From Candidatus Nealsonbacteria bacterium (lineage in GTDB: Bacteria > Patescibacteriota > Minisyncoccia > Minisyncoccales > JANBVM01), in contig CP179889.1 of assembly GCA_047456315.1 (NCBI GenBank), forward strand, positions 448,776 to 512,775: a DNA stretch of 64,000 nt. The letters are read 5' to 3'. The position numbers and the translations under genes are program-made. The notes beneath the pieces were generated by a model. The model did no database searches. It was not told the origin of the DNA and saw nothing but the letters and a program-made list of their open reading frames with translations. Positions 4,002 through 41,191 of the stretch are shown piece after piece. Numbering within the stretch: position 1 is the stretch's first letter; each line of letters opens with the position of its first letter.

Positions 4002-4744
4002 CTATTTTTTAATTAAATTAGTTGCTATTTCTAATCGTCCTTTAAAATTTTTCTGTGTACGACCTTGCCCGTAAAAACATGGAGAAACTATACATTTTTT
4101 ACCTTTAATTAAAAGGGGTCTTCCGCTTTCAACGACGGAAGCATAATCTTTATTTTGATTTAAAAGATATAATGGTTGTCTTCCTAGAAGAATAATCAAG
4201 TCTGGATTGCAAAATTCTATTTCGGCTTCTATCAACTCCTTACTCTTTTGCCTGTCAAAATTCCTATTTTTCCAAGAGCCTTCTTTATAAACCTTTGATG
4301 CGTCTGTCATATATAAAAGACCAAAGTCTATCCCCCATTCGGCTAATTGATTTCTTATTTTGTTCCAGCTATTAAACGAAAATGGCTTTTCTATATCTAA
4401 TTGATCAGTATATTCTTTATATTTATCCTTATTATTAATAACAGGCATGAGGTGGGTTAAAAGAATTATACTTCCCGCATCTTCTATAAAGAATCTTGAC
4501 CCACTATTAAAATACGAAAACCCAATTCGTCAGTGAAAAACTTTTTACCCCACCATAGTAAATCCACACCTCTTTGTGTGGGTTTATAGTCTTGATACGA
4601 AAGAAATATTTCTAAATCTTTACTGTAGTGATTCTTGGGAAACATTCTTTGAAAAACCTTTACAGGTGAACAATCATTGTAACAACTTTTGGGATATATT
4701 TTATATTTAGCAAAAAGTTGTGCTAATTCGCTGATTTTTTTCAT
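4002..4744 (-). pseudogene. Split gene, possibly UDG-superfamily-like (tentative); frameshifted
   Basis: ORFs 4484..4744 (ends ILIVGQDSL*) and 4002..4448 lie on the same strand. Both frames are open across about 4484-4520, so a single +/-1 shift would join them. The GQDS and IILLGRQP strand motifs weakly recall uracil-DNA glycosylase-like folds. Confidence 0.35.
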
Positions 4745-25735: not shown

Positions 25736-26032
25736 TTATGGTCTTGCGATTGAGCTTTCTATTATCTTTATATATTTTACATTATTTGTCTTTACAAAAC
25801 CACTGTTTTTTGCCAGCACCTGGTCAATGTGCGACAAAGAGTTCATTTTTGAAAAATCTATGTCCAAAAACTTATTGTTTTTTGAAAGAGAAACCAGTTC
25901 TTTTTTATAAACCCTGACTAAATATTTATCTCTGGCCAGAACTCCTACCTGAATAACATAAATAACCATTAATGATAATATTAAAACAAGACTGAGAATC
26001 AAAGGGTTTTTTAAAGCAATTGTTTTAGTCAT
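25736..26032 (-). CDS. FtsL-like cell-division membrane protein
   Basis: 98-aa single-TM protein between rsmH and ftsI; call rests on conserved dcw order. Confidence 0.5.
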   Translation of the reverse strand: MTKTIALKNPLILSLVLILSLMVIYVIQVGVLARDKYLVRVYKKELVSLSKNNKFLDIDFSKMNSLSHIDQVLAKNSGFVKTNNVKYIKIIESSIARP

Positions 26033-26039
26033 ATATTTT

Positions 26040-26909
26040 TTAAATTTTTACTGCCGCTCGAAGCTTAGCGCTTCTTGAACGAGGATTATTAATTATTTCC
26101 GATTTACTCGCTGTTATTGGTTTCTTTGTCAAAATTTCAAGTTTTTCTTTAGAATGTTTTTTAAAAAAATTCTTAACAATTCTGTCCTCTAAAGAATGAA
26201 ATGAAATTACCACTATTCTTCCTTGTTTTTCTAAAACCTCTAATGCTTGAGGTAATGCTTCTTTTAAGTTATTAAGCTCATCATTTACAGCAATTCTTAA
26301 TGCCTGGAATGTTTTTGTTGCAAAATGGATTCTTTTATATCTGTAGTAAGAAGGAACAGCTCTTTTAATTATTTCAATCAAATCAAATGTTGTTTTAATT
26401 GGCTTTATTCTTCTTTGATTTACAATCTGATTGCTTATTCTTCTGCTGAACCTTTCTTCTCCATACTTTTTTAATATTTCTTCAATTTCTTTTTCTTTCC
26501 ATTTATTTACAATCTCTTGGGCTGTAAGTTCTGAATCAGTACTGTATCTCATATCAAGCAGCTCATTTTTTTTAAAGCTGAATCCCCTGCCAGAATCTTC
26601 TATGTGCCAGCTTAAAAATCCCAGGTCAAACAAAATTCCAGAAACAGGTTTAAAATTATTATTCTTAACAATTTCTTTTAAATTTTTAAAGGAATCATTT
26701 ACTAAAACTAATCTTTTTATCTTTCTTATAATCAGCCCCTCATATATTTCATTATCCAGCTCTATTCCTAAGACTTTTCCATTGGGTTTATTCTTTTTTA
26801 AAACTTCTAAACTGTGCCCTGCCTGCCCTATTGTACTGTCAATAAAATTCTCATTTGTTTTCGGGTCTAAATATTCTATAACTTCTTTTTTAAGAACACT
26901 TTTGTGCAT
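26040..26909 (-). CDS. rsmH: 16S rRNA (cytosine1402-N4)-methyltransferase
   Basis: 289 aa. HKSVLKKEVIEYL, DSTIGQAGHS, GILFDLGFLSWHIED, ISFHSLEDRIVK. Confidence 0.92.
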   Translation of the reverse strand: MHKSVLKKEVIEYLDPKTNENFIDSTIGQAGHSLEVLKKNKPNGKVLGIELDNEIYEGLIIRKIKRLVLVNDSFKNLKEIVKNNNFKPVSGILFDLGFLSWHIEDSGRGFSFKKNELLDMRYSTDSELTAQEIVNKWKEKEIEEILKKYGEERFSRRISNQIVNQRRIKPIKTTFDLIEIIKRAVPSYYRYKRIHFATKTFQALRIAVNDELNNLKEALPQALEVLEKQGRIVVISFHSLEDRIVKNFFKKHSKEKLEILTKKPITASKSEIINNPRSRSAKLRAAVKI

Positions 26910-27383
26910 TTATATTCCTAGTTCTTCTAATTTAGATGCCATATCTCCTACATCTTTTTCAGTTTTCTGCTTATAGGTATTCCACTTTGTTTTATCCCAA
27001 ACCTCAATTCTGTTAGATAATCCCAAGATAACCACTTCTTTTTTAAGTCCTGCATATTTTTTCAAATAATCAGGAATTAATATTCTTCCTAACTTATCAA
27101 GATTTATATCTACTGCTCCAGCTAACATAATTCTTACAAATCCCCTAGCATCAATTTTACTGGTTGGTAAATTTTCAAGTTTCTTAGCTAGTTTGCTCCA
27201 TTCTGTGGTTGGATAAACAACTAAACAAGTATCGATGCCTTTTGTAACAATCGCTTTTCTTCCTAAACTGTTTCTAAACTTAGATGGTATGGCTAATCTT
27301 TTCTTGTGATCTATTGTGTATGAATATTCACCAATAAACATAGTTATCCACAGAGATGGGTACTTATTAACATACTTATCCAC
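26910..27383 (-). CDS. mraZ: Transcriptional regulator MraZ
   Basis: Contains MFIGEYSYTIDHKKRLAIPSKFR and a second SpoVT/AbrB-like half (DKLGRILIP). The true start is probably the internal Met at 27341 (MFIGEY). Confidence 0.88.
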   Translation of the reverse strand: MDKYVNKYPSLWITMFIGEYSYTIDHKKRLAIPSKFRNSLGRKAIVTKGIDTCLVVYPTTEWSKLAKKLENLPTSKIDARGFVRIMLAGAVDINLDKLGRILIPDYLKKYAGLKKEVVILGLSNRIEVWDKTKWNTYKQKTEKDVGDMASKLEELGI

Positions 27384-27466
27384 AATTCCCCACCTGTGTA
27401 TATTTTATCTTTAAAAATATATATAGGTCAAGCAAAAATTAGTTTATGTTAAAATGAATATAAAAA

Positions 27467-27494
27467 CTGTGGTTTTTCCACAGGAAATCCACAG
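27467..27494 (-). promoter_or_regulatory. Candidate MraZ operator (CTGTGG repeats)
   Basis: Minus strand reads CTGTGG-ATTTC-CTGTGG-AAAAA-CCACAG. Two direct copies at 11-bp spacing plus one inverted copy, about 85-110 nt upstream of mraZ. Confidence 0.4.
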
Positions 27495-27567
27495 TTATTA
27501 GATGCTCTATTTAAAAATCTATATAAAAAACCGCCTTTAAGACGATTTTTAACTTTAACGACTGATT

Positions 27568-28041
27568 TTACTCTTTATTTCGTAATTTATTTAATTGTTC
27601 AGAAACCTTTTCACTGTGTTTTTTTGTAGCTTCAGCTAAATTTTTCAAAAGGTGTTTTAATTCTACTGAATCTCCCTCAAAGACTTCAAGACATTTTCTC
27701 TCTATTAAGGAGCTCTCTAAATAATAAGCTGTAGATAAAGCGTTGATCGGCAATAGCTTTTTGAATTTGGCTTCTGATATTTGTTTGTTTACTTCACCTA
27801 AAAATGTCTTTATTGCTTCCAGTCTGAATCTATCCTCATTAAAAAAAGCTGAGCCTTTTTTAGTCCTGTCCCGAAGATTACGTATCCAATTAGCGTGAAC
27901 TGTTTCGTCTTGTGACAAGCCCAACCAAAATTCTTTATCATCAGGAAACTTTTCACTGTATATTTTATACAATTCACTCAACGCTTCTTCGTTGTCTATT
28001 AACCCTTCTATTGCCTCGTTTTGATACTCTTTTAATTCCAT
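27568..28041 (-). CDS. Ferritin-like four-helix-bundle protein (tentative)
   Basis: 157 aa, all-helical. Possible di-metal ligand pair motifs (SQDETVHANW, LESSLIERK, AEATKKH). Confidence 0.35.
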   Translation of the reverse strand: MELKEYQNEAIEGLIDNEEALSELYKIYSEKFPDDKEFWLGLSQDETVHANWIRNLRDRTKKGSAFFNEDRFRLEAIKTFLGEVNKQISEAKFKKLLPINALSTAYYLESSLIERKCLEVFEGDSVELKHLLKNLAEATKKHSEKVSEQLNKLRNKE

Positions 28042-28081
28042 AGATTTATCTTATTTTATTTTAACAAAAAATCATTATCAA

Positions 28082-28107
28082 AACAAACCCGCATTTTTGC
28101 GGGTTTG
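28082..28107. terminator. Bidirectional intrinsic terminator
   Basis: Stem ACAAACCCGC / GCGGGTTTGT with loop ATTTTT, flanked by A and T runs. Confidence 0.6.
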
Positions 28108-28153
28108 TTATACACTGTTTTGCCAACGGTTTTTATTAGAAACAAAAGCAAAA

Positions 28154-29422
28154 TTATTCTTTTTCTATTGATGTTACAATATTGCTTCCCAAATCTATGG
28201 TAATCCAGTAATTTTCTCCTGTGCTTTCTTTTTCTAAAACTACAGTAACGGTCTCTATTCTTATTTCTGTCATTGTCTCAGTTTTAGTGATAATTGGTTT
28301 TGACCTGATAATTTCAAGAATCTCATAATCATTATCCTTTAATAAATCTTTAATTCTCTCATCTTTCTCGCCAATATCCTTTAGCATTGCCGCAAACATT
28401 TCTTTTTCAGTACCACTTCCAGGTCCGCTTGATTGACCCTCGCTTATTATTATTCCTTCATCAGGTAGGGATGTCTTAGTTCCATCCGGCTCAAGATAAA
28501 ACTTGGGCTTAATAGGATAAGGATATTCTAATTCGGGTTTTTCAATTCTACCTCCTGTTGAAAATGATACTGCTCCTTCCACTTTACCTGTAGTAAGATT
28601 AACCGTGATTATATCCTGATATTCATTGGACTTGAAAATCACATTGGCTCTTTTATCTTCTTTCAGGTCCGCGGAAGTAACTTCCATTCCTCCGTCAACA
28701 AGATCTTCATTCAGCCGAAGTTTAAGTTTAAGAGGAGGCACTGGCTTGACGATTATTTCTCTCTCTTCTAAATCAGAAATCATCTCCTGAATCTTTGGCT
28801 CGGTTTTGGCAATCTCAATTGCTCTGGCTTCTTCCTCTGCAGTTAAGGGAGAGATATTAATCTGCATTTCTTCAATCAATTCAAGTTTTTCTACTTTCTT
28901 TGCTTTAAGGTCTATTTCAGCAACCGAACCAGAAGATTCTATTATTTCGCCTGTTTTAGGATCTTGATAGACGATGTAAAATTGTCCGGGTCCGCGTATA
29001 CCTAAAGCGCTTGAGTCAGTTGCCTCTTCTATAGAGAGAGCTTTTTCTTCTAAGCCAAAAACAGGGGGCAATTTCTCCTCAGGAAGAGTAAGCAGAACAT
29101 AAGCTTTACCATCCTGTAGTTTTACTTCTTTAATCTCCACTCCGTAATCTTCTATTAATTGTTGAATCTGAGGATCATTTTTAGCGATTTCCATAGCTCT
29201 GGCTATCTGCAGTTTTGGCTGGATTATTGTAAAGCCTACAACTAAAATTAAAGCTAAAGCAACGCCAGCAGGAATTAATCTTTTTGTATAAAACATAATA
29301 GTTTTCTTCTTAAAATACCCAGAGTTAAGCAAGTCCATATTTAACCGATGTTGATGGCTTTGAATTTCAATATTTGGAGTTTTAACTTTCTCTAGTTTTT
29401 TAATTAAATCTTTCTTTTTCAT
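28154..29422 (-). CDS. Anti-sigma-factor-like membrane protein with PepSY-like extracytoplasmic repeats
   Basis: 422 aa. Short cytoplasmic N-terminus, single TM helix (LIPAGVALALILVVGFTII), three repeats of the type A.EIAK..P.IQ..I......TG.(I/V). Lies immediately downstream of the ECF sigma gene. Confidence 0.6.
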   Translation of the reverse strand: MKKKDLIKKLEKVKTPNIEIQSHQHRLNMDLLNSGYFKKKTIMFYTKRLIPAGVALALILVVGFTIIQPKLQIARAMEIAKNDPQIQQLIEDYGVEIKEVKLQDGKAYVLLTLPEEKLPPVFGLEEKALSIEEATDSSALGIRGPGQFYIVYQDPKTGEIIESSGSVAEIDLKAKKVEKLELIEEMQINISPLTAEEEARAIEIAKTEPKIQEMISDLEEREIIVKPVPPLKLKLRLNEDLVDGGMEVTSADLKEDKRANVIFKSNEYQDIITVNLTTGKVEGAVSFSTGGRIEKPELEYPYPIKPKFYLEPDGTKTSLPDEGIIISEGQSSGPGSGTEKEMFAAMLKDIGEKDERIKDLLKDNDYEILEIIRSKPIITKTETMTEIRIETVTVVLEKESTGENYWITIDLGSNIVTSIEKE

Positions 29423-29494
29423 AAACTCTAGATATTTAATAATTATTTTTACCTTTTTTTGACCTTTATGAGCATTTTACAATACTCTATAAAC

Positions 29495-29522
29495 ATAACG
29501 CATTAAGTCAAAAAAGGTTGCG
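29495..29522 (-). promoter_or_regulatory. ECF-type promoter GCAACC-N15-CGTTAT
   Basis: Hexamers at 29516-29521 and 29495-29500, 72 nt upstream of the anti-sigma start, directly after the sigma stop codon. Confidence 0.5.
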
Positions 29523-30071
29523 TTAATTTATTAATTTTCTTAATTTTTCTAAACCACGGTGTAATAAAGATTTTATTGTCCCCTCTTTTTTTCCTAAAAT
29601 TTCACCAATTTCTTTAATTTTCTTTTTTTCAAGAAATCTTAATACAATTACTTCCTGATACTTAATAGGAAGCTTAGAAATTTTTTCTTGAAGCATTAAA
29701 AAGTCCTGATGTTTTTTTAATTCTTGCTCAGCTTCAATAATTTCAGTAAAGGGATTTGAAAGCGCAACTGGTTCTGGAATTTTCTCTAAAGAAACTTTAT
29801 ATTTATTTTTCCTAAAGTAATTAGCAATTTCATTATTCACAATTTTATAAAGCCAGGCCGAAAAAGAAATGTTTTTCCAACGGAATTGCCAGAGTTTCTT
29901 TAAGGCCTTAAAAAATGTTTCTGAGGTTATGTCCTGAGCAATCTCTAAATTGGCTGTTCTTTTTAAGGCATAACCAAAAATCCTGGAATAATGCTCATTA
30001 TAAAGCTTAGCAAAAGCCTTCGGGTCTTTTTGGGCTTTTTTGACTAATTCTCTCTCTTTTTCTAAATTCAT
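29523..30071 (-). CDS. RNA polymerase sigma factor, ECF (group 4) subfamily
   Basis: 182 aa. Region 2 (FAKLYNEHYSRIFGYALKRT..AQDITSETF) and region 4 HTH (YQEVIVLRFLEKKKIKEIGEILGKKEGTIKSLLHRGLEKLR). Confidence 0.88.
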   Translation of the reverse strand: MNLEKERELVKKAQKDPKAFAKLYNEHYSRIFGYALKRTANLEIAQDITSETFFKALKKLWQFRWKNISFSAWLYKIVNNEIANYFRKNKYKVSLEKIPEPVALSNPFTEIIEAEQELKKHQDFLMLQEKISKLPIKYQEVIVLRFLEKKKIKEIGEILGKKEGTIKSLLHRGLEKLRKLIN

Positions 30072-30108
30072 ATCTAAAATAAAAAGGATTTTCCGCCTTT
30101 ATTTCAGT

Positions 30109-30136
30109 ATAACGCAGAAAATCCTAAAAAGTTGCA
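30109..30136 (-). promoter_or_regulatory. ECF-type promoter GCAACT-N15-CGTTAT (putative autoregulation)
   Basis: Hexamers at 30130-30135 and 30109-30114, 37 nt upstream of the sigma start. Confidence 0.5.
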
Positions 30137-30268
30137 TTTAATTTTATTCAGAAAGCAATTTAACACTACCTTCTCGAACCGCCGAGACAATGAGCGCAGT
30201 TATCAAATCCTTTTTTATGAGCATCAATAAGATTCGTAAATTTCACTTTATTAGCATTCTTAACTAAT

Positions 30269-30548
30269 TCAAGCCATGGCAGCACGTTTCATAAAAAAAG
30301 TCAAAAATGAACTGGAGCGACAAAAAATCATTGCTGAAAACAATACGACTGGAATTAAAAGAAGATACTGAGTTTTAAATAATTTCTGTTGAAACTTTTT
30401 AGTTAAAATTAAAGAAAAAATAATTAGAATTAAAATAAAAACAAAAAATGCAACACCCCACTGGTTTTCCATAAAATAAATAATCAACGAGCAGACCCAA
30501 AATCACTGCAAAAGAAATTAAATAATATTTTTTATTCTCTTTTTTCAT
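30269..30548 (-). pseudogene. Decayed membrane-protein gene (frameshifted and truncated)
   Basis: ATG at 30548 opens MKKENKKYYLISFAVILGLLVDYLFYGKP.., which stops after ~49 codons. The hydrophobic sequence continues in another frame as listed ORF 30269..30487, which ends prematurely. Confidence 0.3.
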
Positions 30549-30647
30549 TTCTTCTTCTTTAAAATAGATTATTTTATTTTTTTTATAGAGATAATTTATC
30601 TACTTTCAAAATAACCTCTTTTTTGAGAAAGTGCAAGACAAAATTAA

Positions 30648-30668
30648 AAACCCGAAATATCGGGTTAA
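30648..30668 (-). terminator. Intrinsic terminator
   Basis: Minus-strand AACCCGATATTTCGGGTT hairpin followed by TTTTT. Confidence 0.55.
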
Positions 30669-30672
30669 TAAT

Positions 30673-30690
30673 GCATCTCGGTCTCTCGAA
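30673..30690 (-). repeat. 18-nt conserved motif, copy C
   Basis: Plus strand GCATCTCGGTCTCTCGAA. Here it pairs with the adjacent CCGAG to form a CTCGGT/ACCGAG hairpin. Confidence 0.6.
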
Positions 30691-30703
30691 CCGAGCACTA
30701 ACC

Positions 30704-30727
30704 TGCTCCAGCGACAGGACTCGAACC
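30704..30727 (-). other. Orphan tRNA 3'-end-like fragment (T loop plus acceptor 3' strand)
   Basis: Minus strand GGTTCGAGTCCTGTCGCTGGAGCA resembles T-loop/T-stem/acceptor/discriminator. No matching 5' half (TCCAGCG) upstream. Confidence 0.45.
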
Positions 30728-30737
30728 AATAACAATA

Positions 30738-33296
30738 TTAAGGATTAACTATTAATTTAAAATCTTTTGGTTCTAATTCCACTCTATCCCCTCTTTTAAT
30801 TTCATTAGAGAGCAGGGCTTTAGCAAACACATTACCAATTTTATCCTGAATAACTCTATTCATTTGCCTTGCTCCAAATCTTGTATCATAGCTTAAATCA
30901 ACTATTTTTCGTTTAAGTTCATCTGTTATAATAAACTCAATATCTTTTTTGGCTAAATTTTTCTTTAACTTATTAAGCAATAACTCTGAAATATCTAAAA
31001 GATTTTCCTTGCTTAAAGCTTTAAATAAAACAACAGCATCAAAACGATTAATAAACTCTGGTCTGAATATCCTTTTTTTAAATAGATAGTTTATAAGGTC
31101 CTCTCTAATATCTTCCATTTTTTTATTCTCTTTTAATGCATCTAAAATTATTAAATATCCAGCATTAGAAGTGGCAATAATAATCGTGTTTTTAAAATTA
31201 ACCTTTCTTCCCAAGCCATCAGTAATATACCCTTCATCTAAAACCTGCAAAAACAGATTCAAAATATTGGGATGAGCTTTTTCTATTTCATCTAATAAGA
31301 CCAAAGAAAATGGATTTTCTACCACTTTAGTTGTTAATAGTCCTTCCCGGCCAGTAGAACCAATCAGTCGCGATATATCTGAGATTTCTTGGAACTCTGA
31401 CATATCTAATCTAATCATTTTCTCTTCTTTACCAAAATAAATTTCAGTCAAGGATTTAGCTGTTTCAGTTTTCCCTACTCCTGTTGGTCCTAAAAACAGA
31501 AATGCTCCCATTGGTCCTTTTCTGATAGTAACCTCTGTTCTGGCCCTTCTTAACGCCTCTGCCACCTCTCTAACTGCAGTTTCCTGGTTAATGATTCTTT
31601 TATGAATCAATTCCTCTAAATTAAGAAGTTTTTCTTTTTCTTTTGATTCAACCTCGCCCACAGGAATTTCAGTTCTCTCAGACACAATTTTAGCAACATG
31701 TTTCGGTAAAACTGTCTTTTCTTTTATTTGAGAAACATAAGAAACCACGTCATCTAACAGGTCAATTGCTTTTTCAGGAAAAGGAGCATCAGCAAAATAC
31801 TTATCAGAAAAATTAATAATATCCCGCATTGCTGGATAAGAAATAAACTGCTTATACTTTACCTCTTTTAAAGGAACTAAATTCTCTAAAACAATTAAAG
31901 ATTCTTGTTTTGTGATTTCCTTTACTTCAACCTTTTCAAAAAAAGACAAAATTGAAGGATTCTCTTCAATATATTTATGAAGACCAGCAAAGCTAGTAAT
32001 AGCTATGACTTGAAATTGAGATAGGTTTAAGAATGAGCTTATCACGCTTGTTATATCAAGCGCTCCTGGCCGTTTTACTCCGCCAACAAAATTATGAAAA
32101 TCATTAATAACTAAAATCACATTGCCAGCTGAGACAGCTTCATTAAACATTAAGTTTAAAATATCTCCAGCAGCTTGAGCGCTCTGGGCTTGAGTTAACA
32201 AGGACGGCAAATCAATCTCTATTAATCTTTTATGATTTAATTCTTTTGATATTTCTCCAAAAACACTTCTTTTAGCAAAGGCCTCAACTATACTTTTTCT
32301 TCCGCTTCCAGGCTTGCCAACAAGCAATATATTGTTTTGCTTTTCTTTTGCCAAAATCCTTTCTACTGCTTTCATTTCTGTCTCATGACCAATTATTTTG
32401 GCAAATCCTCCTCTTGCTATTTCTGATAAATCAACAGAGAACTTATCTAAATCAACAGTATAACCAACTGTCCATTCCTTGCCCAAAGAACCAAGCTTAA
32501 GCAGATTTTTCCACTCCCAGAACCTTTTTTTCTGAGATATATTTTGTTCGATTCTCTCCAGCCAATTAACTAAATTATCAATATCTTTTGCTTTTAAATT
32601 GTTATTAATTAAAATTTCTTTAAAAACCAGATTGTTTTTTGACAAAGAAAAGATTATATCACCAAGCTCAATTCTTTGATGGTTTCTTTTTTGAGCAATT
32701 TCCAAGGCCTCTAAAATTGATACTTTAAAATCTTGACTATAGCTTTCTTTAAAAGCGCTCTTATCAATTGTTTTAATTGTTTTCAGCAGCATTTCTCGAA
32801 TTTCCTTAATATCAAAAAGAGCTCTTGAAAAAATAAAGTTTAAACCAAGATTATTCTTTAATAATTGATAAAGCAAAATAGATGAATTAACTTCAGAAAT
32901 CTTTTTTGATCTGGCAAATTTAACAGATTCAGAAACTGCCCTAGATGCTTCAAATCCTAAAAACTCTGCTAAATTATATTTCCCAGGATTCAAAGCTACT
33001 TGCTTAATAGTTGCTTTTAGCTTTGGTTTTTTAAGAAACTCTAAAAATGAGCTTTTAATGTTTGAAATTATACTGAGTGTTAAGAATAAGATTGAAAAAC
33101 CAACTAATCTTCTGGCAAAAACCCATGAAGCGCTTCCAGGTAAAAAGGAATTGATTAAAGCTAAAAACGAAGCAATAAATAAAACCATGAACAACTTTCT
33201 AAATATGCTTCTATACCTAAAAAGAATGCTTCTTTCTAAAGCTACTGCCTCATAAATTTCACTTTCTTTTAAATTAAATTGAAAGTCTAATGCCAT
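30738..33296 (-). CDS. Membrane-anchored Clp/Hsp100-family AAA+ protein (two NBDs, NBD1 degenerate)
   Basis: 852 aa with two N-terminal TM helices, then Clp_N-like repeats. NBD1 Walker A is GKPGSGRKS and Walker B is VINDFH (consensus GEPGVGKT / IDELH). NBD2 is canonical (GPTGVGKTE, LLDEIEKAH). No long M-domain or IGF-type loop seen. Confidence 0.8.
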   Translation of the reverse strand: MALDFQFNLKESEIYEAVALERSILFRYRSIFRKLFMVLFIASFLALINSFLPGSASWVFARRLVGFSILFLTLSIISNIKSSFLEFLKKPKLKATIKQVALNPGKYNLAEFLGFEASRAVSESVKFARSKKISEVNSSILLYQLLKNNLGLNFIFSRALFDIKEIREMLLKTIKTIDKSAFKESYSQDFKVSILEALEIAQKRNHQRIELGDIIFSLSKNNLVFKEILINNNLKAKDIDNLVNWLERIEQNISQKKRFWEWKNLLKLGSLGKEWTVGYTVDLDKFSVDLSEIARGGFAKIIGHETEMKAVERILAKEKQNNILLVGKPGSGRKSIVEAFAKRSVFGEISKELNHKRLIEIDLPSLLTQAQSAQAAGDILNLMFNEAVSAGNVILVINDFHNFVGGVKRPGALDITSVISSFLNLSQFQVIAITSFAGLHKYIEENPSILSFFEKVEVKEITKQESLIVLENLVPLKEVKYKQFISYPAMRDIINFSDKYFADAPFPEKAIDLLDDVVSYVSQIKEKTVLPKHVAKIVSERTEIPVGEVESKEKEKLLNLEELIHKRIINQETAVREVAEALRRARTEVTIRKGPMGAFLFLGPTGVGKTETAKSLTEIYFGKEEKMIRLDMSEFQEISDISRLIGSTGREGLLTTKVVENPFSLVLLDEIEKAHPNILNLFLQVLDEGYITDGLGRKVNFKNTIIIATSNAGYLIILDALKENKKMEDIREDLINYLFKKRIFRPEFINRFDAVVLFKALSKENLLDISELLLNKLKKNLAKKDIEFIITDELKRKIVDLSYDTRFGARQMNRVIQDKIGNVFAKALLSNEIKRGDRVELEPKDFKLIVNP

Positions 33297-33669
33297 GATA
33301 AATTCCTAAGATTAAAAAAACAGGTAAAACCAGCCAAGCCGCTAAAACAAAAACACCAAAAACCAAAATGAAAATTTCTGAGATAATGCCAATTATTATT
33401 AAAACGCTTCTGGGAATAAACCCAAGCACTCTAGAAATTAAATTAGAAAAAGCAACCTCAGCATATTTTCCCAAATCAAATGATTTTGGATAAAACCATC
33501 TATAATTTCTCCAGGGAGAAAAAAGTGTTTTTAAAAGCAAGCCAACAGAAAAATAATTTAATCCAAATCTAAGATAATTACCCCATCCTTTTAAAATACT
33601 TTTTGGAGCTTCAATAAAATGCCACCAAATATATTTTAAAACAGTATTTTGCTTTATAATTTTTATCAT
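33274..33669 (-). CDS. Small membrane protein
   Basis: 131 aa with about 3 TM helices. Overlaps the Clp-like gene by 23 nt. Confidence 0.6.
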   Translation of the reverse strand: MIKIIKQNTVLKYIWWHFIEAPKSILKGWGNYLRFGLNYFSVGLLLKTLFSPWRNYRWFYPKSFDLGKYAEVAFSNLISRVLGFIPRSVLIIIGIISEIFILVFGVFVLAAWLVLPVFLILGIYHGIRLSI

Positions 33670-34004
33670 TTTTTAATTAAGTTAACTCCTAAACCAGCAA
33701 CTTTACTTCCACCAAGCATTAAAACACCTGCTCCTATTGTCCAGACAATTAAATTTAAAAACTGGGGCAAGCTTTCAAGCGGCAACATATTAGCCAGCTG
33801 CTGGGATATCATTTCTCCAAACTGATCAGGATTTGTGGGAAGACCTCCTTGTCCAGAGGTTTTAGGTTTTTCAATATTTAAACTAATAATCTCTGGTGCT
33901 GATGCTTTCCCGGTAAAGATATTATATGTGTGATAAATTGTCAAAACTATTATTGAAATGCCAATTATAAATATTAACCAGCCAATTATCTTAGTTGTAT
34001 CCAT
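33666..34004 (-). CDS. Small membrane protein
   Basis: 112 aa with 2 TM helices. 4-nt overlap with the downstream gene. Confidence 0.6.
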   Translation of the reverse strand: MDTTKIIGWLIFIIGISIIVLTIYHTYNIFTGKASAPEIISLNIEKPKTSGQGGLPTNPDQFGEMISQQLANMLPLESLPQFLNLIVWTIGAGVLMLGGSKVAGLGVNLIKK

Positions 34005-34042
34005 GCTTTTAATATATTATTTATTATTAATATATTTTACTG

Positions 34043-35032
34043 TTATTTTTTAACTCTTGCAAAACGATACTTTTTAAACTGATCTTTAAAAAATCTAAAT
34101 CTCGAGTAACCCTCTTCTCTTAGTATTTTTTCAATAGCACTCTTCTGCTGCGGGTCAAACTCAAGATAAATAACACCTTGCTTTTTTAAAAATATCCTGG
34201 CAAGGCCTAAAAACTTTCTAATATGGTTTAGCCCTTTTTGACCTGAAAAAAGAGCTTTCTGAGGTTCATACTCTAAAACTGAATCCCCTACTTCATCTGT
34301 TCTTTGCTTAGCCACATAAGGAGGATTAGCAAAAATATAGGCATATTTTTTATTCTTTAATCCTTTGAACAAATCTGACTGATATATCTCATATCTTTGA
34401 GAAAGAACTTTATTTAGTTTCAAATTTATTCTGATCTGCTCAAGAGCTTTTTTATCAATATCAGAAAAATCTACACTGCTTGTTTTAATCTTCTTTAAAA
34501 CAGCAACACCAATACATCCAGAACCGGCAAACATGTCTAAAACCTTTAAATCTTTTGTTTGTTTAATTTCCTTGATTGCTTTTTTAACCCAAAACTCTGT
34601 TTCAATCCTTGGGATAAAAACTTTTTTTGATAAATCAATCTCACAATTTAAGAATTTTACCCTTCCTTTAGTATATTCTTCAGGAATATCAGCTTTGAAA
34701 TCATGCTTTAATTCCCATAAAATATCTTCTGGTATTGGAGGCGGCTGTCTTTTTGGACTTATTCCAGGATAACGCCAGGCAGTAATAATTTTTGTTATTC
34801 TCTTATACTTCTGATACATTAACCAGATTTCAGTAGGATGTTTCTTTGTTCCAGTTTTCTCCATTACTGCCACAGTTTTTGGGGCAATTCCAAGCTCTTT
34901 TCTGTCTGGGTTACGCAGCACTCTTTTCAATCGGTTTTCAGATAAGCGATAATATCTCATTTTATCTCTAACATGCCTTGTCCAATAAAATCTCTCTTGT
35001 TGAGAAATAAGTTTCATAATTATAAGATTCAA
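34043..35032 (-). CDS. prmC: Release-factor glutamine N5-methyltransferase (PrmC/HemK core) fused to a DUF4258-like N-terminal domain
   Basis: 329 aa. C-terminal part: FIPRIETE, VLDMFAGSGCIGVA, IFANPPYV. The N-terminal ~100 aa (FYWTRHVRDKMRYYRLSENRLKRVLRNPD..IWLMYQ..ITAWRY) resembles small DUF4258-type proteins. Confidence 0.75.
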   Translation of the reverse strand: MNLIIMKLISQQERFYWTRHVRDKMRYYRLSENRLKRVLRNPDRKELGIAPKTVAVMEKTGTKKHPTEIWLMYQKYKRITKIITAWRYPGISPKRQPPPIPEDILWELKHDFKADIPEEYTKGRVKFLNCEIDLSKKVFIPRIETEFWVKKAIKEIKQTKDLKVLDMFAGSGCIGVAVLKKIKTSSVDFSDIDKKALEQIRINLKLNKVLSQRYEIYQSDLFKGLKNKKYAYIFANPPYVAKQRTDEVGDSVLEYEPQKALFSGQKGLNHIRKFLGLARIFLKKQGVIYLEFDPQQKSAIEKILREEGYSRFRFFKDQFKKYRFARVKK

Positions 35033-35854
35033 CTATTCCAATAAAAGCTCTGCCTCTTTAACCAGTTTATCTAGTTCCTTTGACGATAGATTCAGTTTTT
35101 TAACAAGCTGGTTTAAAGAAAGATCTAAAAGGTTTAAAACAAGCATCATTTTCTTCTCTGCAAAAATATTCTTAAAGTGGGGCTTAAAAGAAGGAAGAAT
35201 GGTAATAGGATAAAGATTGTATTCTTCTATCATATACTCAAGCCCTTTGCCTCTTGGATATTTCCAGCCCAAAAGACCAACACCGTAACACTCACAATAA
35301 TTAATTGCCTCACTGGTAAATTTAGCATTTGTTACTATTATTGTTTTTGAGTTCTTAAATTTAGGATTATTTGAAATATCTAAAAACCTTGCGTAATTAT
35401 ATAGTGCCACCTTTAAATCAACTCTTGCTCCAGCAGAAGTATGATATTTGCATTCACCAAGGTGAAACAGCTTGTCTTTTTGAGCCAAGAAATCTATTTC
35501 ATATGATGATATACATTTACCAGCTATAATTTGATTGGTTTTTACTTTAAAACCATTTCTTGAAAAAATCTCAGCAATGTATTTTTCAAAATCAAAACCA
35601 CTGGGACCAAGCCTTCTCATGGCCTGTTTTAAAGAAAACTTCATTGACGCAGCTGGAGATTCTTTTAAAAGCTTTTTGACGAGCCTATATATCTCAGAGG
35701 TTTTAATTTCAGGGTAAATCTTTTTTTCAATATCATGAGCAATTCTTTTTGCCAACTTATCTGAAGCTCCTGCTCTTTTTGAAGAACGATATACTTTATC
35801 AAAAGAGAAAAGTTCTTTCTCTCTTCTTGCATTAACTACGTAAATTTTTTTCAT
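35033..35854 (-). CDS. ATP-cone domain protein with restriction-endonuclease (Mrr_cat-like) domain
   Basis: 273 aa. N-terminal ATP-cone pattern (IYVVNARREKELFSFDKVYRS..), then FEKYIAEIFSRNGFKV...YEIDFLAQKD..LGECKYH. Confidence 0.65.
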   Translation of the reverse strand: MKKIYVVNARREKELFSFDKVYRSSKRAGASDKLAKRIAHDIEKKIYPEIKTSEIYRLVKKLLKESPAASMKFSLKQAMRRLGPSGFDFEKYIAEIFSRNGFKVKTNQIIAGKCISSYEIDFLAQKDKLFHLGECKYHTSAGARVDLKVALYNYARFLDISNNPKFKNSKTIIVTNAKFTSEAINYCECYGVGLLGWKYPRGKGLEYMIEEYNLYPITILPSFKPHFKNIFAEKKMMLVLNLLDLSLNQLVKKLNLSSKELDKLVKEAELLLE

Positions 35855-36422
35855 TAACGAGTTTATCTTTAATTTTTTTTAAAATACAAACAAAAAGCAT
35901 TGATAAGAATGCTCCAAAAACAACATCTTTAGGAAAATGAAAGCCAGTATAAATTACTGTAAATCCAACTAAAAATGCCAGAACCAAGAAAAACCAGCTT
36001 AGTTTGTCTTTTTTTTCAATAAAAAAAGCCAGGGCCAGACCAAAAGCAAGCATTGTGGTAGTAGAAGGAAAAGAATACTGGCTCATGTGCCAGGGCCCAA
36101 CAATTCTTACGTCAGGGAGTATCATGTATGGCCTTGGCATTTTAAAAATAAGTTTTACTAAATTGCCAATAATATAACAAAAACCTCCTGAAAATAAAGT
36201 AAAAAATCCTGAAATATCTTTTTTAAAAACAAATAATATTCCAGGAATTATTCCCATTAAAAGGAATAAAGGAATAAAGATATATAAGACAATGAAGTCC
36301 AGAACCGGACTAGCCAAGTTCTGGTTAATAAATAAAAACAAAACTTCGTTATTAGTTATTATTAAAAAAATCATTAATCCAACGAGAAGTCCAATAAAGA
36401 TTTTATTAGTAGAATTATTCAT
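35832..36422 (-). CDS. PAP2-family membrane phosphatase
   Basis: 196 aa. KMPRP (Kx6RP), FPSTT (PSGH-like), TGFHFPKDV (SRx5Hx3D-like). Confidence 0.7.
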   Translation of the reverse strand: MNNSTNKIFIGLLVGLMIFLIITNNEVLFLFINQNLASPVLDFIVLYIFIPLFLLMGIIPGILFVFKKDISGFFTLFSGGFCYIIGNLVKLIFKMPRPYMILPDVRIVGPWHMSQYSFPSTTTMLAFGLALAFFIEKKDKLSWFFLVLAFLVGFTVIYTGFHFPKDVVFGAFLSMLFVCILKKIKDKLVNEKNLRS

Positions 36423-36594
36423 CTTGTTTTTGCTGCTTTTTTTAGCAAACCCTACTATATATAAGTTTCCCAGTTTTTTCTCATAAGCTTTTTCCGGCTT
36501 ATAACAAAAACTCTCATGCTCTTTAAGACATTTTACTTTGTATTTAACTTATTGTAAAATCAATTAGAACATTAGTTCTAGAGAGGAATAAAAA

Positions 36595-37017
36595 TTGAAA
36601 ATAAGTACAAAAATAGATGTTCTTGGGCTCGATCTGGACAATACCCTAACTTTCAGAATACGCGGAAAATTACCTTGGTGGTGCTTTACGCCTCTAATGC
36701 CATTTTTAATGTTATTACCGCCAAATAGATTAATACTTAATATGCTTAGAGAATTTAGAGAGTCTGGTGGTGAGATCGTTATTATTTCATCAAGGCCCAG
36801 GTTTTTCATAAAATTTTCAGAGCTATGGTTAAGGCATTACAAAGTTCCTTATTGTAAAATAAGATGTGTGGGTTTCATTCACAGAAGTCAGAAAAAACTA
36901 CAAGTTATTCGCAAAGAAAACATTAAATGTTTTATTGATGATGATTGTACAGTAAGAAATTTCCTAAAAAAAAATGAGCCTCTTATTAAAATATTAGATC
37001 CTTTCATTATGGTGTAA
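36595..37017 (+). CDS. HAD-superfamily hydrolase-like protein
   Basis: 140 aa. LGLDLDNTLT (DxDxT), IISSRP, FIDDD. TTG start with GAGAGG Shine-Dalgarno 9 nt upstream. Confidence 0.6.
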   Translation: MKISTKIDVLGLDLDNTLTFRIRGKLPWWCFTPLMPFLMLLPPNRLILNMLREFRESGGEIVIISSRPRFFIKFSELWLRHYKVPYCKIRCVGFIHRSQKKLQVIRKENIKCFIDDDCTVRNFLKKNEPLIKILDPFIMV

Positions 37018-37046: not shown

Positions 37047-38244
37047 TTAACCTTTGTATTTTTCTAAAGCAATTTTTAACACATTCATTGCCTCTTTCAT
37101 TTTTGGCGCTGACAGAACAAAAGCAATCCTTACCTCGTCTTTGCCTAATCCCTTGCTGGCATAAAAACCAGCAGCAGGAGCCAGCATCACTGTTTTACCT
37201 TTGTATGAAAACTTGGTTAAAAGCCACTTGGTAAAATTCTCAGCACTTTTAACAGGAAGCTTAACTGTAATATAAAAAGCTCCTTTTGGTTTTGAACACT
37301 GGGCTCCAGGAATCTTTTGAAGCCCTTCAAAAACAGCATCTCTTCTTTTTTTATACTCTTTAACAATCTTTCTGGTGTAAGCTTTTGAGTTTAATAAAAG
37401 CGGTACTGTTGCTAATTGTTCAATCATTGGCGAGGATAACCGGGCCTGAGCAAATTTAGTTACTCCAGCAATAACATCTTTATTCTTTGAAGCTAAACAT
37501 CCTATTCTCACGCCACAAGCGCTAAATCTTTTGGAAATACTGTCAAGTATAACTGTTCTTGAACGGGCTTTTGGAAAATCCATTACTGAGTAATGTTTTT
37601 CTCCATCATAAACAAATTCACGATAGACCTCATCAGCTAAAATAAATAGATTATGTTTTATAGCAATATCAATAATCATTTGAAGCTCTTTCCTGGAATA
37701 AACAGTGCCAGTCGGATTAGAAGGATTACAAATTAAAATAGCTTTTGTCTTTCTGCTTATTTTCTTTTCAATAACAGCTCTTTTTGGCAAATGAAATCCA
37801 GTACTGACTAAGGTTCTGACAGGCGCTAATTTTACCCCTGCCATAGCCCCAAAACCATTATAATTGATAAAATGGCTCAAACACAATCACTTCATCACCT
37901 GGATCACAGACTGCAGCTAAAGCAAAGAAAATTGCTTCACTTCCAGCAATTGTAACAATGATTTCAGATTCATCAAAATTAATGCCAAATTCTTTAAAAT
38001 ACTTTCTCCAGGCAGATTTCACCTCAGGAATTCCATTAGAAGGAGTGTATCGTATTATCTTTTCATTAAAATTCTTAATCTTGTTTAATATCTGAGAAGG
38101 TGTTTTTAAGTCAGGCTGGCCAATATGAAGCTCAAAAACATCTAATCCTCTTTTTTTAGCAAGCTGAAGCAAAGGAACAAACTTTCTTATTGGTGATAAA
38201 GGTGCATTAATTGCCCTTAAAGAAGTTTTTAATTTTTTAACCAT
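37047..38244 (-). pseudogene. Class I/II (aspartate-type) aminotransferase, frameshifted
   Basis: N-terminal ORF 37858..38244 ends ..VIVFEPFYQL*. The C-terminal ORF continues NYNGFGAMAGVK.. in another frame and carries the PLP lysine block SISKRFSACGVRIG. The junction TTTTATCAATTATAATGG shows a 1-nt frame offset. Confidence 0.7.
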
Positions 38245-39866: not shown

Positions 39867-40002
39867 CTACCAGGTCAGCTTAAAATCATGATGCTTGCCG
39901 CCCTTAAAAACACACTCTGTTTCAATACAGATCACTGGGCTTCTAACTATCATTTTCACCAAGCTCCTGGACTTTTTCTTTTGTTAAAATATCTTCTACC
40001 AT
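39867..40002 (-). pseudogene. Collapsed third copy of the tandem 200-aa paralogue family
   Basis: ATGGTAGAAGATATT start overlaps the stop of the upstream copy exactly as at the 40592-40598 junction. About 17 N-terminal codons (VEDILTKEKVQELGEN) join out of frame to the last ~31 codons (LVKMIVRSPVICIETECVFKGGKHHDFKLTW*). Confidence 0.6.
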
Positions 40003-40598
40003 TTTATTAAAAATTCATGATAGTTATCACCTTTAAAAGGACACTTGGTTTCTTCACAAGTTATCTCGCCTCTTAGGACCATTCTCATCACACTATAGAT
40101 ATATCCTTTCATACTCAAGCAGTGATAAGGGTGAAGTTTAAAATTCTTGATTCTTAGAACAGCATATTTTTCCTCCTTATTTAATTCAACCATTTCCAGA
40201 TCTCCAATAGAATAAAGTTTTCTCCATATCTTTGGGGCTGCCTTGGCAGCTGATTCAATGGAAACAAAATACTTCATGAAAAGTCTTAAAATTAAAGAAA
40301 GTTTTGAATTAAACTCTCCTAATTCTTCAAACTCCCTATCAGTAAAATTAAACAGTTTTTTAATCACTAAAAAAAGAATTACCTCTAGACCCACTGGATA
40401 AAACTCCATGTTTCTCATTTTTTCATAATTTATTGGATAACCAAGGTTTCTCATTTCATCTTCAATTTTCTTTAGAGCTTCTTTGCCTTTTTTATCAATT
40501 ACATAATCAATATCACCTTTAATTGAAATTCCTCTTGTTTCTCCTTTCATTTTCATTAACTCATCAGCTATTTTTTTTGTAATAATATCTTCTACCAT
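39996..40598 (-). CDS. Paralogue 2 of a 200-aa putative ligand-binding protein (V4R/DUF2378-like, tentative)
   Basis: 200 aa. C-terminus HCLSMKGYIYSVMRMVLRGEITCEETKCPFKGDNYHEFLIKW recalls V4R-type domains. Roughly half of positions are identical to the upstream copy by eye. Confidence 0.6.
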   Translation of the reverse strand: MVEDIITKKIADELMKMKGETRGISIKGDIDYVIDKKGKEALKKIEDEMRNLGYPINYEKMRNMEFYPVGLEVILFLVIKKLFNFTDREFEELGEFNSKLSLILRLFMKYFVSIESAAKAAPKIWRKLYSIGDLEMVELNKEEKYAVLRIKNFKLHPYHCLSMKGYIYSVMRMVLRGEITCEETKCPFKGDNYHEFLIKW

Positions 40599-41191
40599 TT
40601 TATTAAAAACTGATGATAATTATCACCTTTAAAAGGACACTTGGTTTCTTTACAGTCAGTATCTTTATTAACAACCATTTTAACCACATTGGCAAAATAT
40701 CCTTCAAGCATCCGGCAATGAGGTGAATGAATCTTAAAATTTTTAATCTCTAAAACAACATATTTTTCTTCTTCGTTTAGCTCTGTAACTTTAAAATATC
40801 CTATATTGTAATACTTTCTCCACATAATTGGCGCTTTCTGAGCTATTACCTGCATAGAAACAAAATATTTCATAAAAAGCTTAACAATCAAAGAAATCTT
40901 TGACTGATACTCACCTATTTCTCTTAACTTTTCATCACTAAGATTAAAAAGCTCTCTTACAACTAAAAGCGTTACAGCTTCCAGTCCTATTGGATAAAAA
41001 CTCATTGGCTTCATACTCTTATACTTTACTATCTGACCAAGCTCTGCCATCTTATCTTCTACTTTCTTAAAAACCTCTTCTCCTTTTTCCTCAACAACAA
41101 ACTGAACATGACTTTTAGGAGCAATCCCCCTCACCTCTCCTTTGATTTTCATCAATTCATCAGCTATTTTTTTTGTAATTTTTTCTTCCAT
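40592..41191 (-). CDS. Paralogue 1 of a 200-aa putative ligand-binding protein (V4R/DUF2378-like, tentative)
   Basis: 199 aa. C-terminus HCRMLEGYFANVVKMVVNKDTDCKETKCPFKGDNYHQFLIKW. 7-nt overlap with paralogue 2. Confidence 0.6.
   Translation of the reverse strand: MEEKITKKIADELMKIKGEVRGIAPKSHVQFVVEEKGEEVFKKVEDKMAELGQIVKYKSMKPMSFYPIGLEAVTLLVVRELFNLSDEKLREIGEYQSKISLIVKLFMKYFVSMQVIAQKAPIMWRKYYNIGYFKVTELNEEEKYVVLEIKNFKIHSPHCRMLEGYFANVVKMVVNKDTDCKETKCPFKGDNYHQFLIKW

Follow-up and report, generated by a model that had tools for sequence, protein, structure and literature searches.

The 64,000-nucleotide (nt) stretch of DNA analysed here, which we call the window (Candidatus Nealsonbacteria bacterium, assembly GCA_047456315.1, contig CP179889.1, positions 448,776 to 512,775 of the forward strand), carries the gene for an ATPase that we firmly identify, on the basis of sequence comparison and predicted structure, as a membrane-anchored derivative of the Clp/Hsp100 proteins that is restricted to the Patescibacteria, has a degenerate first ATPase module (D1) and has a constant partner in a small membrane protein, m131. 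A first-pass annotation of this DNA had described the protein as Clp/Hsp100-like and anchored in the membrane, its first module as catalytically degenerate and its gene as coupled to those of small membrane proteins, and our analysis supports that description. The key departure of the ATPase from all characterised Clp/Hsp100 unfoldases, as judged from alignment, is that neither of its two rings has aromatic-hydrophobic pore loops. The Patescibacteria (candidate phyla radiation) account for a large share of bacterial diversity and have very small genomes, and we know of no role for most of the lineage-specific genes that are conserved among them.

The ATPase begins with a membrane hairpin. Hydropathy analysis places two transmembrane (TM)-like segments at residues 35-53 and 59-82, and the AlphaFold2 (AF2) model, a monomer predicted from an alignment of 102 family members with a mean predicted local distance difference test score (pLDDT) of 91 and a predicted template modelling score (pTM) of 0.85, contains helices at residues 29-50 and 58-88 with pLDDT values of about 90-96; the two N-terminal TM helices originally proposed for the 852-residue protein are borne out by both methods. 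Absence of the hydrophobic N-terminus from orthologues had been named as grounds for abandoning the proposal, and we found TM-like segments, mostly two, at the N-terminus of 109 of 109 full-length representatives. A false TM region created by a mis-called start codon was considered and rejected, because the alignments with homologues begin at residue 1-7 and the 23-nt overlap between the m131 and ATPase genes recurs in 17 loci.

Beyond the hairpin, AF2 predicts an all-helical N-domain at about residues 97-257, followed by D1 and the second ATPase module (D2). A Foldseek search of the model against the PDB returned ClpC, ClpB, ClpC1 and ClpA, with ClpC as the best match (E 1e-55, spanning 819 columns). 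Pfam recognises AAA_lid_9 (463-544), AAA_2 (595-754) and ClpB_D2-small (761-840), and the tandem of D1 (AAA), D2 (AAA_2) and C-terminal D2-small domain is present as in the class I Clp/Hsp100 proteins. The NCBIfam models for ClpA (covering residues 118-841), ClpB and ClpV all match the ATPase with scores far under their cut-offs, for example 467 against a cut-off of 1232 for the ClpB model TIGR03346, and the protein falls under every NCBIfam equivalog cut-off. When compared with PDB sequences, the family profile matched ClpC with an E value of 3.8e-206 in an alignment starting at residue 26 of the ClpC N-domain, and matched ClpA in one continuous stretch (7-737). The Clp_N-like repeats of the first-pass annotation hold at the level of profile and structure (the ClpA model, the ClpC N-domain and Foldseek) but not at the level of Pfam, where Clp_N gives no match to the window ATPase, even at E<=10, and only weak precomputed matches in some homologues; from the profile and fold evidence, the N-domain is probably of the Clp_N type.

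Two elements of other Clp proteins had been reported as missing, and our alignments agree. The ClpB-type M-domain, at about residues 432-493 of T. thermophilus ClpB, has no counterpart, and the aligned stretches that flank it abut in the ATPase; the ClpC M-domain (residues 404-463) is likewise skipped, with the family profile continuous at position 515, and ClpA aligns as a single stretch. A ClpP-docking tripeptide of the form [ILVM]-G-[FL], searched for between the motifs TSNAG and RPEF, a region of 40 residues in 92 of the 102 aligned members, occurs in none of the 102, and the family profile has a gap opposite the ClpC insert that contains the ClpP-docking VGF. By alignment, the architecture is thus ClpA-like in having no M-domain and ClpB-like in having no ClpP loop.

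The degeneracy of D1 was examined by residue-level alignment to a solved ClpB and by motif counts in the alignment of 102 family members. In the window protein, the ClpB Walker A sequence GEPGVGKT is replaced by GKPGSGRK and the Walker B sequence FIDELH by VINDFH, which confirms the substitutions first noted in this nucleotide-binding domain (GKT to GRK, DE to ND). The arginine fingers are absent (ALERRFQ in ClpB, ILSFFEK here), as is the pore-loop tyrosine (AKYRGEFE in ClpB, AQSAQAAG here). Across the family, a canonical Walker A K[ST] is found in 8 members and an arginine takes the place of the lysine in 57; Walker B retains DE in 28, the RR fingers occur in 0, and any aromatic residue is present in the D1 pore loop of 12, none of them conserved. 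D1 degeneracy is therefore family-wide, whereas the particular N-D pair of Walker B is limited to the window's subclade (about 12/121), D-E being kept in most close relatives. Like the D1 rings of PEX1/PEX6 (PMC6862443), D1 is without the residues for hydrolysis, and its most plausible role is that of a scaffold. We also observed that the D1 P-loop pattern G-[KR]-[KR]-[ST] is recurrent and non-random, with GRKS in 27, GKKT in 15, GRKT in 7 and GKRT in 7 of the 102 members.

D2 combines an intact catalytic centre with a lost pore loop. Alignment to ClpB shows that Walker A, Walker B, sensor 1, the arginine finger and sensor 2 are intact, and in the family alignment GKT, DE and R751 (in RPEF[IL]NRFD) are each present in 102/102 members and the GAR of sensor 2 in 98/102. 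Columns that are at least 80% conserved make up 35.5% of D2, 11.8% of D1, 3.1% of the N-domain and 1.1% of the TM region; D2 is thus far more constrained than D1, which suggests that its ATPase activity is under selection. The pore loop, in the same alignment, is deleted: ClpB RLIGAPPGYVGYEEGGQLT becomes RLIGS-TGRE-GLLT, so that the window protein has GS-TGRE-G where ClpB has GAPPGYVGYEEGG, and the family profile reads 'GSpee....keeglLt' opposite 'GSPPGyvgyDEGGQLT' of ClpC. AF2 models the site as a tight turn at residues 646-652. Across the family, lengths between 2 and 14 residues are seen, and an aromatic residue of any kind occurs in the loops of 9 of 102 members, none conserved; the loop is short, variable and rich in E, P, G and S, as expected for an unconstrained loop. 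The description of this module as canonical consequently stands for the catalytic motifs but not for the GYVG pore loop. Two features of class I Clp/Hsp100 proteins are missing from the family as a whole, namely the aromatic-hydrophobic pore loops (the KYR-type tyrosine of D1 and the GYVG of D2), absent from both rings, and a full set of catalytic Walker A/B motifs and arginine fingers in both modules, D1 being degenerate.

The second constant component of the system is m131. Its N-terminal part is basic and amphipathic and contains the hallmark motif NYFS-PLLLKTLF-PW[KR]R; a hydrophobic hairpin makes up the C-terminal part. All of its 577 homologues are annotated as hypothetical and have no Pfam domain, and m131 itself gave no match in Pfam, NCBIfam or PADLOC. 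Its AF2 model is confident (pLDDT 90.9) and found no fold match in the PDB better than E 3.8, a search that is uninformative on function. We scanned 185,579 species genomes with an alignment of five close m131 sequences, found relatives in 310 species and kept 80 loci for analysis, all of which carry Patescibacteria or unclassified 'bacterium' titles except for one Humimicrobiaceae. The ATPase gene lies directly 3' of m131 on the same strand in 77 of the 77 testable loci; the remaining three lie within 450 nt of the end of their contig. The m131 stop and the ATPase start overlap in 50 of 64 measurable loci and are separated by no more than 30 nt in nine more. The association extends to distant ATPases (29-37% identity), with an m131 homologue upstream of six of the six sampled; it lies immediately upstream of the ATPase in loci L004, L005, L008 and L092, and is separated from it by one inserted gene in L091. 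The inserted gene (L091 4581-4979) encodes a 23S rRNA intervening-sequence protein (PF05635).

In 34 of 150 representatives m131 and the ATPase form a single protein, with m131 at the N-terminal end, in two architectures: a short form of about 820 residues (m131-N-D1-D2) and a long form of about 890 residues (m131-TM-N-D1-D2). Fusions of this kind would require the two termini of m131 and the ATPase N-terminus to lie on one side of the membrane, in agreement with the positive-inside distribution. We infer from the genetics and the fusions that m131 is an obligate partner of the ATPase with which it is probably in contact. The upstream gene, m112, is less constant, with homologues in 40 of 82 testable loci, directly upstream of m131 in 33 of these. 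Of the three-gene unit first proposed, the m131-ATPase pair is conserved but m112 is not a regular member, and the same holds for conservation of the neighbourhood, which had been named as a point on which the proposal could fail: the order m131-ATPase is invariant and sometimes reinforced by fusion, but m112 comes and goes. The conserved unit is two genes, m131 and the ATPase, sometimes fused.

The existence of 568 ATPase and 577 m131 homologues establishes the ATPase and m131 as real genes. The best 120 of the ATPase homologues are full-length, 56-97% identical and come from Candidatus Nealsonbacteria and other Patescibacteria; their source labels are 'AAA family ATPase' and 'ATP-dependent Clp protease ATP-binding subunit ClpC'. 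A more distant search, using the N-terminal 560 residues of the ATPase against 1.84 billion cluster representatives (50% clustering), returned 623 representatives at E<=1e-30, with 28-47% identity among the best 150. As found in these searches, the family appears restricted to the Patescibacteria, where many assembly labels are generic and firm naming is available for Parcubacteria/Paceibacteria groups. Two labels fall outside this range: a contig titled 'Candidatus Humimicrobiaceae' (L020, DATKUR010000002.1) carries a family locus, and a family member (P0237) is encoded on a 2.8-kb contig titled 'Nitrososphaerota archaeon'. Both are probably cases of mis-binning, with horizontal transfer as the other possibility. 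The invariant D2 motifs over hundreds of diverged sequences and the constant pairing with m131 make the ATPase likely to be important to the Patescibacteria. No other Clp or FtsH paralogue was found within the window. In the literature we found no account of a Clp protein of Patescibacteria that is anchored by TM segments or has no pore loops, within a coverage that was incomplete and could have missed an earlier description.

Comparison with known systems helps to define what the ATPase could do. ClpA, ClpB and ClpC share with it the order N-domain, D1, D2 and D2-small and have identical D2 catalytic motifs; like the ATPase, ClpA has no M-domain and ClpB no ClpP loop. Unlike all three, it has an N-terminal TM hairpin with an obligate or fused membrane subunit, and has no D1 Walker A, arginine fingers, pore-1 tyrosine or D2 GYVG loop. 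FtsH resembles it in being anchored by two N-terminal TM segments, with its AAA+ ring in the cytoplasm and turned toward the membrane. It differs in its single AAA module, its aromatic pore loop and its fused M41 metalloprotease, none of which the ATPase has; Pfam found neither Peptidase_M41 nor any other peptidase in the latter. The proposed distinction from both the classical Clp systems and FtsH is upheld by the TM anchor, the degenerate D1, the missing ClpP loop and the missing M41 domain. An FtsH-like protease was rejected for want of a protease domain and for the presence of two AAA modules, and a ClpB disaggregase for want of an M-domain.

Two further systems offer parallels. Torsins are Clp-related AAA+ proteins without aromatic-hydrophobic pore loops, for which reason they are not regarded as classical unfoldases, and their role is uncertain; they have no arginine finger of their own, which is supplied by the membrane cofactors LAP1/LULL1 (PMC7175109). 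The ATPase is like them in being a Clp-related AAA+ protein without aromatic pore loops that sits at the membrane with small membrane partners, a resemblance that does not make it a member of the Torsins. It differs in keeping the invariant D2 arginine, R751, and in having two modules and an N-domain with a predicted cytoplasmic location, whereas Torsins, which belong to the ER and nuclear envelope, are single-module, luminal and eukaryotic. PEX1/PEX6 has a D1 ring without hydrolysis residues, a D2 motor and a small membrane-protein anchor, and its D2 pore loops are needed for threading (PMC6862443). The likeness to the receptor export module of PEX1/PEX6 with PEX15/PEX26 lies in the double ring, the D1 without hydrolysis residues, the D2 motor and the recruitment by a small membrane protein, and is one of analogy and not of homology, PEX1/PEX6 belonging to another AAA+ clade. 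Unlike the ATPase, PEX1/PEX6 keeps its D2 pore loops and threads substrates; it depends on a separate tail-anchored protein for its anchorage, while the ATPase also has a TM anchor of its own. Double-ring AAA+ machines can run with D2 alone active, and in NSF movements of the N-domain can do remodelling work (PMC6862443).

We propose that the ATPase and m131 form a two-subunit membrane AAA+ machine in which ATP drives remodelling or switching through membrane-tethered N-domains and TM helices, a reading of the sequence evidence to which we would give about an even chance. D1 would be a non-hydrolysing scaffold or assembly ring and D2 the sole motor. The absence of aromatic paddles from both rings makes processive threading or unfolding improbable, and ATP hydrolysis would probably not serve it; hydrolysis would instead be coupled to movements of the tethered N-domains and of the TM helices (the ATPase's own hairpin and those of m131). 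The target of such movements would be associated with the membrane and would be remodelled, assembled or gated by them, in a logic that may be closer to that of NSF or the Torsins than to that of ClpA, ClpB or ClpC. The frequent position of the genes just upstream of mraZ-rsmH-ftsL-ftsI weakly suggests that the target acts in envelope growth or division.

Several points weigh against this proposal. Loss of the aromatic residues makes threading unlikely and not impossible, as a substrate might be contacted by different residues of the loops or by part of m131. The recurrent G-[KR]-[KR]-[ST] pattern of D1 may reflect retained binding of phosphate or nucleotide without hydrolysis, in which case a pure scaffold may be too simple a description. 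The models are of monomers only, and the contact between the ATPase and m131 is presumed from the genetics and the fusions. The linkage to mraZ is absent in the distant members L005, L008 and L090, and might reflect a gene order passed down within a strongly syntenic clade. Going beyond the proposal, we tentatively entertain the possibility, which we think somewhat improbable, that the ATPase and m131 represent an unrecognised class of membrane-integrated AAA+ machine, derived from Clp/Hsp100, that has abandoned threading and contains a ring of about 24 TM helices (6 x (2+2)) beneath a paddle-less, D2-driven double ring. If that were true, ATP would be used for gating, assembling or moving something within or across the membrane of Patescibacteria, for example a component of the envelope or of division or material that comes from the host, and the function served would be one that defines the lineage and is probably essential to these reduced genomes.

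The explanation put forward in the first-pass annotation was an unfoldase for membrane-protein extraction or quality control. In this explanation a client would be pulled from the bilayer and through the channel by the D2 motor, gripped by non-canonical loop residues, in an FtsH-like job without the protease. The TM hairpin precedes the N-domain, so that the N/D1 face, the usual side of substrate entry, would point toward the membrane; the D2 catalytic motifs are invariant, D2-only double rings work elsewhere (PMC6862443), and an N-domain of the substrate-binding type is kept. Against these stand the missing aromatic-hydrophobic residue in both pore loops, the short D2 loop of variable length and E/P/G/S-rich composition, the absence of a protease partner loop and of an M-domain for coupling to DnaK, and the requirement for the D2 pore loops in threading by PEX1/PEX6 (PMC6862443). 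With no conserved aromatic pore-loop residue in either ring, the claim of an extraction unfoldase did not survive as the favoured explanation, and we consider it unlikely.

A specific version of the remodelling explanation that we favour is that the ATPase and m131 control how a divisome or peptidoglycan-synthesis component encoded in the neighbouring division and cell wall (dcw) cluster is assembled or turned over. Downstream sequence of 3 kb or more is available for 48 loci, and 36 of these have mraZ downstream of the ATPase and on its strand, with rsmH, ftsL-like and ftsI genes following the ATPase, a member at 37% identity among them. In the close relatives L001 (a complete Nealsonbacteria genome of 689 kb) and L003, the order is PAP2, small protein, MTS methyltransferase, m112, m131, ATPase and MraZ, and then (RsmH), FtsL-like, FtsI and Mur ligase; the upstream PAP2 phosphatase is a further point in favour. 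The window departs from this order in that genes for an extracytoplasmic function (ECF) sigma factor, a 422-residue TM protein and a 157-residue protein are inserted between the ATPase and mraZ-rsmH-ftsL-ftsI-mur, and a terminator-like hairpin follows the ATPase. Elsewhere the upstream genes are variable, with rplJ-rplL in about 22 loci, several distant members have unrelated neighbours, and synteny by itself is weak functional evidence. We regard this narrower role as quite improbable.

That the ATPase is an ordinary ClpC that works with ClpP and whose hydrophobic N-terminus is an annotation artefact agrees with the source annotations and with ClpC being the top match of both sequence profile and fold, but is next to inconceivable given the NCBIfam scores, the absence of the docking tripeptide and of the ClpC M-domain, a TM N-terminus that is conserved, aligned from the first residues and confidently modelled, and the degeneracy of D1 and of both pore loops; it was ruled out on the docking loop, the M-domain and the TM anchor. 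A defence ATPase was also considered, as PADLOC reported DolB and PDC-M37B, and was rejected because these matches cover just the generic AAA_2 region (454-712); a defence system was likewise rejected because m131 and m112 have no PADLOC match and the neighbours are housekeeping genes.

For the AAA+ field, the family amounts to a natural experiment in which the motor chemistry of one ring was kept, the gripping loops of both rings were lost and a membrane domain was gained. It bears on how AAA+ motors work without threading, which is the open problem of the Torsins. The database names 'ClpC' and 'Clp protease ATP-binding subunit' are misleading for these proteins and are unsuited to inferring ClpCP proteolysis.

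The coordinates of the three genes, of the domains and motifs of the ATPase and of the terminator-like hairpin are collected in Table 1. A check of the open reading frames (ORFs) confirmed the gene overlaps originally reported, 23 nt between ATPase and m131 and 4 nt between m131 and m112.

Table 1. Features of the ATPase locus, in positions of the window (position 1 is its first nucleotide)
Feature	Position	Strand	Description and basis
Clp/Hsp100-like ATPase	30738-33296	minus	852 aa; TM hairpin - N-domain - D1 - D2; Pfam, alignments, AF2, Foldseek
m131 membrane protein	33274-33669	minus	131 aa; predicted partner of ATPase
m112 membrane protein	33666-34004	minus	112 aa; putative clade-restricted accessory gene
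TM hairpin, ATPase residues 29-88	33033-33212	minus	Hydropathy and AF2
Clp_N-like helical N-domain, ATPase residues 97-257	32526-33008	minus	Profile, AF2 and Foldseek
D1, ATPase residues 283-545, degenerate pseudo-ATPase module	31662-32450	minus	Alignment
D1 Walker A GKPGSGRKS	32292-32318	minus	
D1 Walker B VINDFH	32094-32111	minus	
D1 Arg-finger site ILSFFEK	31932-31952	minus	
D1 pore-1 region LLTQAQSAQAAGD, no Tyr	32163-32201	minus	
D2, ATPase residues 560-852, AAA_2 module and D2-small domain	30741-31619	minus	
D2 Walker A GPTGVGKTE	31464-31490	minus	
D2 Walker B LLDEIEKAHP	31269-31298	minus	
D2 pore loop reduced to RLIGSTGREGLLTT, no GYVG	31329-31370	minus	
Terminator-like hairpin then T-run	30649-30666	minus	72 nt past ATPase stop codon; consensus scan only, weak

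The gap on the 3' side of the ATPase gene (666 nt, 30072-30737) is unusually long and contains the terminator-like hairpin, which from its sequence and position is likely to mark the 3' end of the ATPase unit. The gap also contains a small hydrophobic ORF (30269-30487, 72 residues), and an Rfam scan of positions 26000-37000 gave no match. The insertion between the ATPase and mraZ spans 27568-30071 on the minus strand. It includes the ECF-type sigma-70 factor (29523-30071, minus strand), whose sequence found no match in 80 related loci, and the 422-residue protein (28154-29422, minus strand), which has one TM segment and no Pfam match and is a possible anti-sigma factor.

On the upstream side, m112 has TM-like segments at residues 6-24 and about 79-103 by hydropathy, and gave no match in Pfam, NCBIfam or PADLOC; from its distribution it would be a lineage-specific accessory gene. 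The next ORF upstream (34043-35032, minus strand, 329 residues) combines a DUF4258-like domain of about 100 residues (E 0.028, a weak match) with an MTS/PrmC-type methyltransferase in a single frame. In relatives the two parts are separate overlapping genes (4212-4589 and 4567-5256 in L001), and the 329-residue ORF may be a fusion or an over-extended ORF.

Three other observations were made in the window. The replicative helicase DnaB (13483-16122, plus strand, 879 residues) contains an intein with a LAGLIDADG homing-endonuclease domain. A gene at 37047-38244 on the minus strand, which by eye from its sequence we take to be aminotransferase-like, is split into the overlapping ORFs 37858-38244 (128 residues) and 37047-37886 (279 residues, TTG start), and this could be due to a frameshift, a pseudogene or a sequencing error. 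Finally, the ORFs 39996-40598 and 40592-41191 (minus strand) are tandem paralogues of about 200 residues that overlap by 7 nt and have near-identical N-termini (…ITKKIADELMK.KGE.RGI…).

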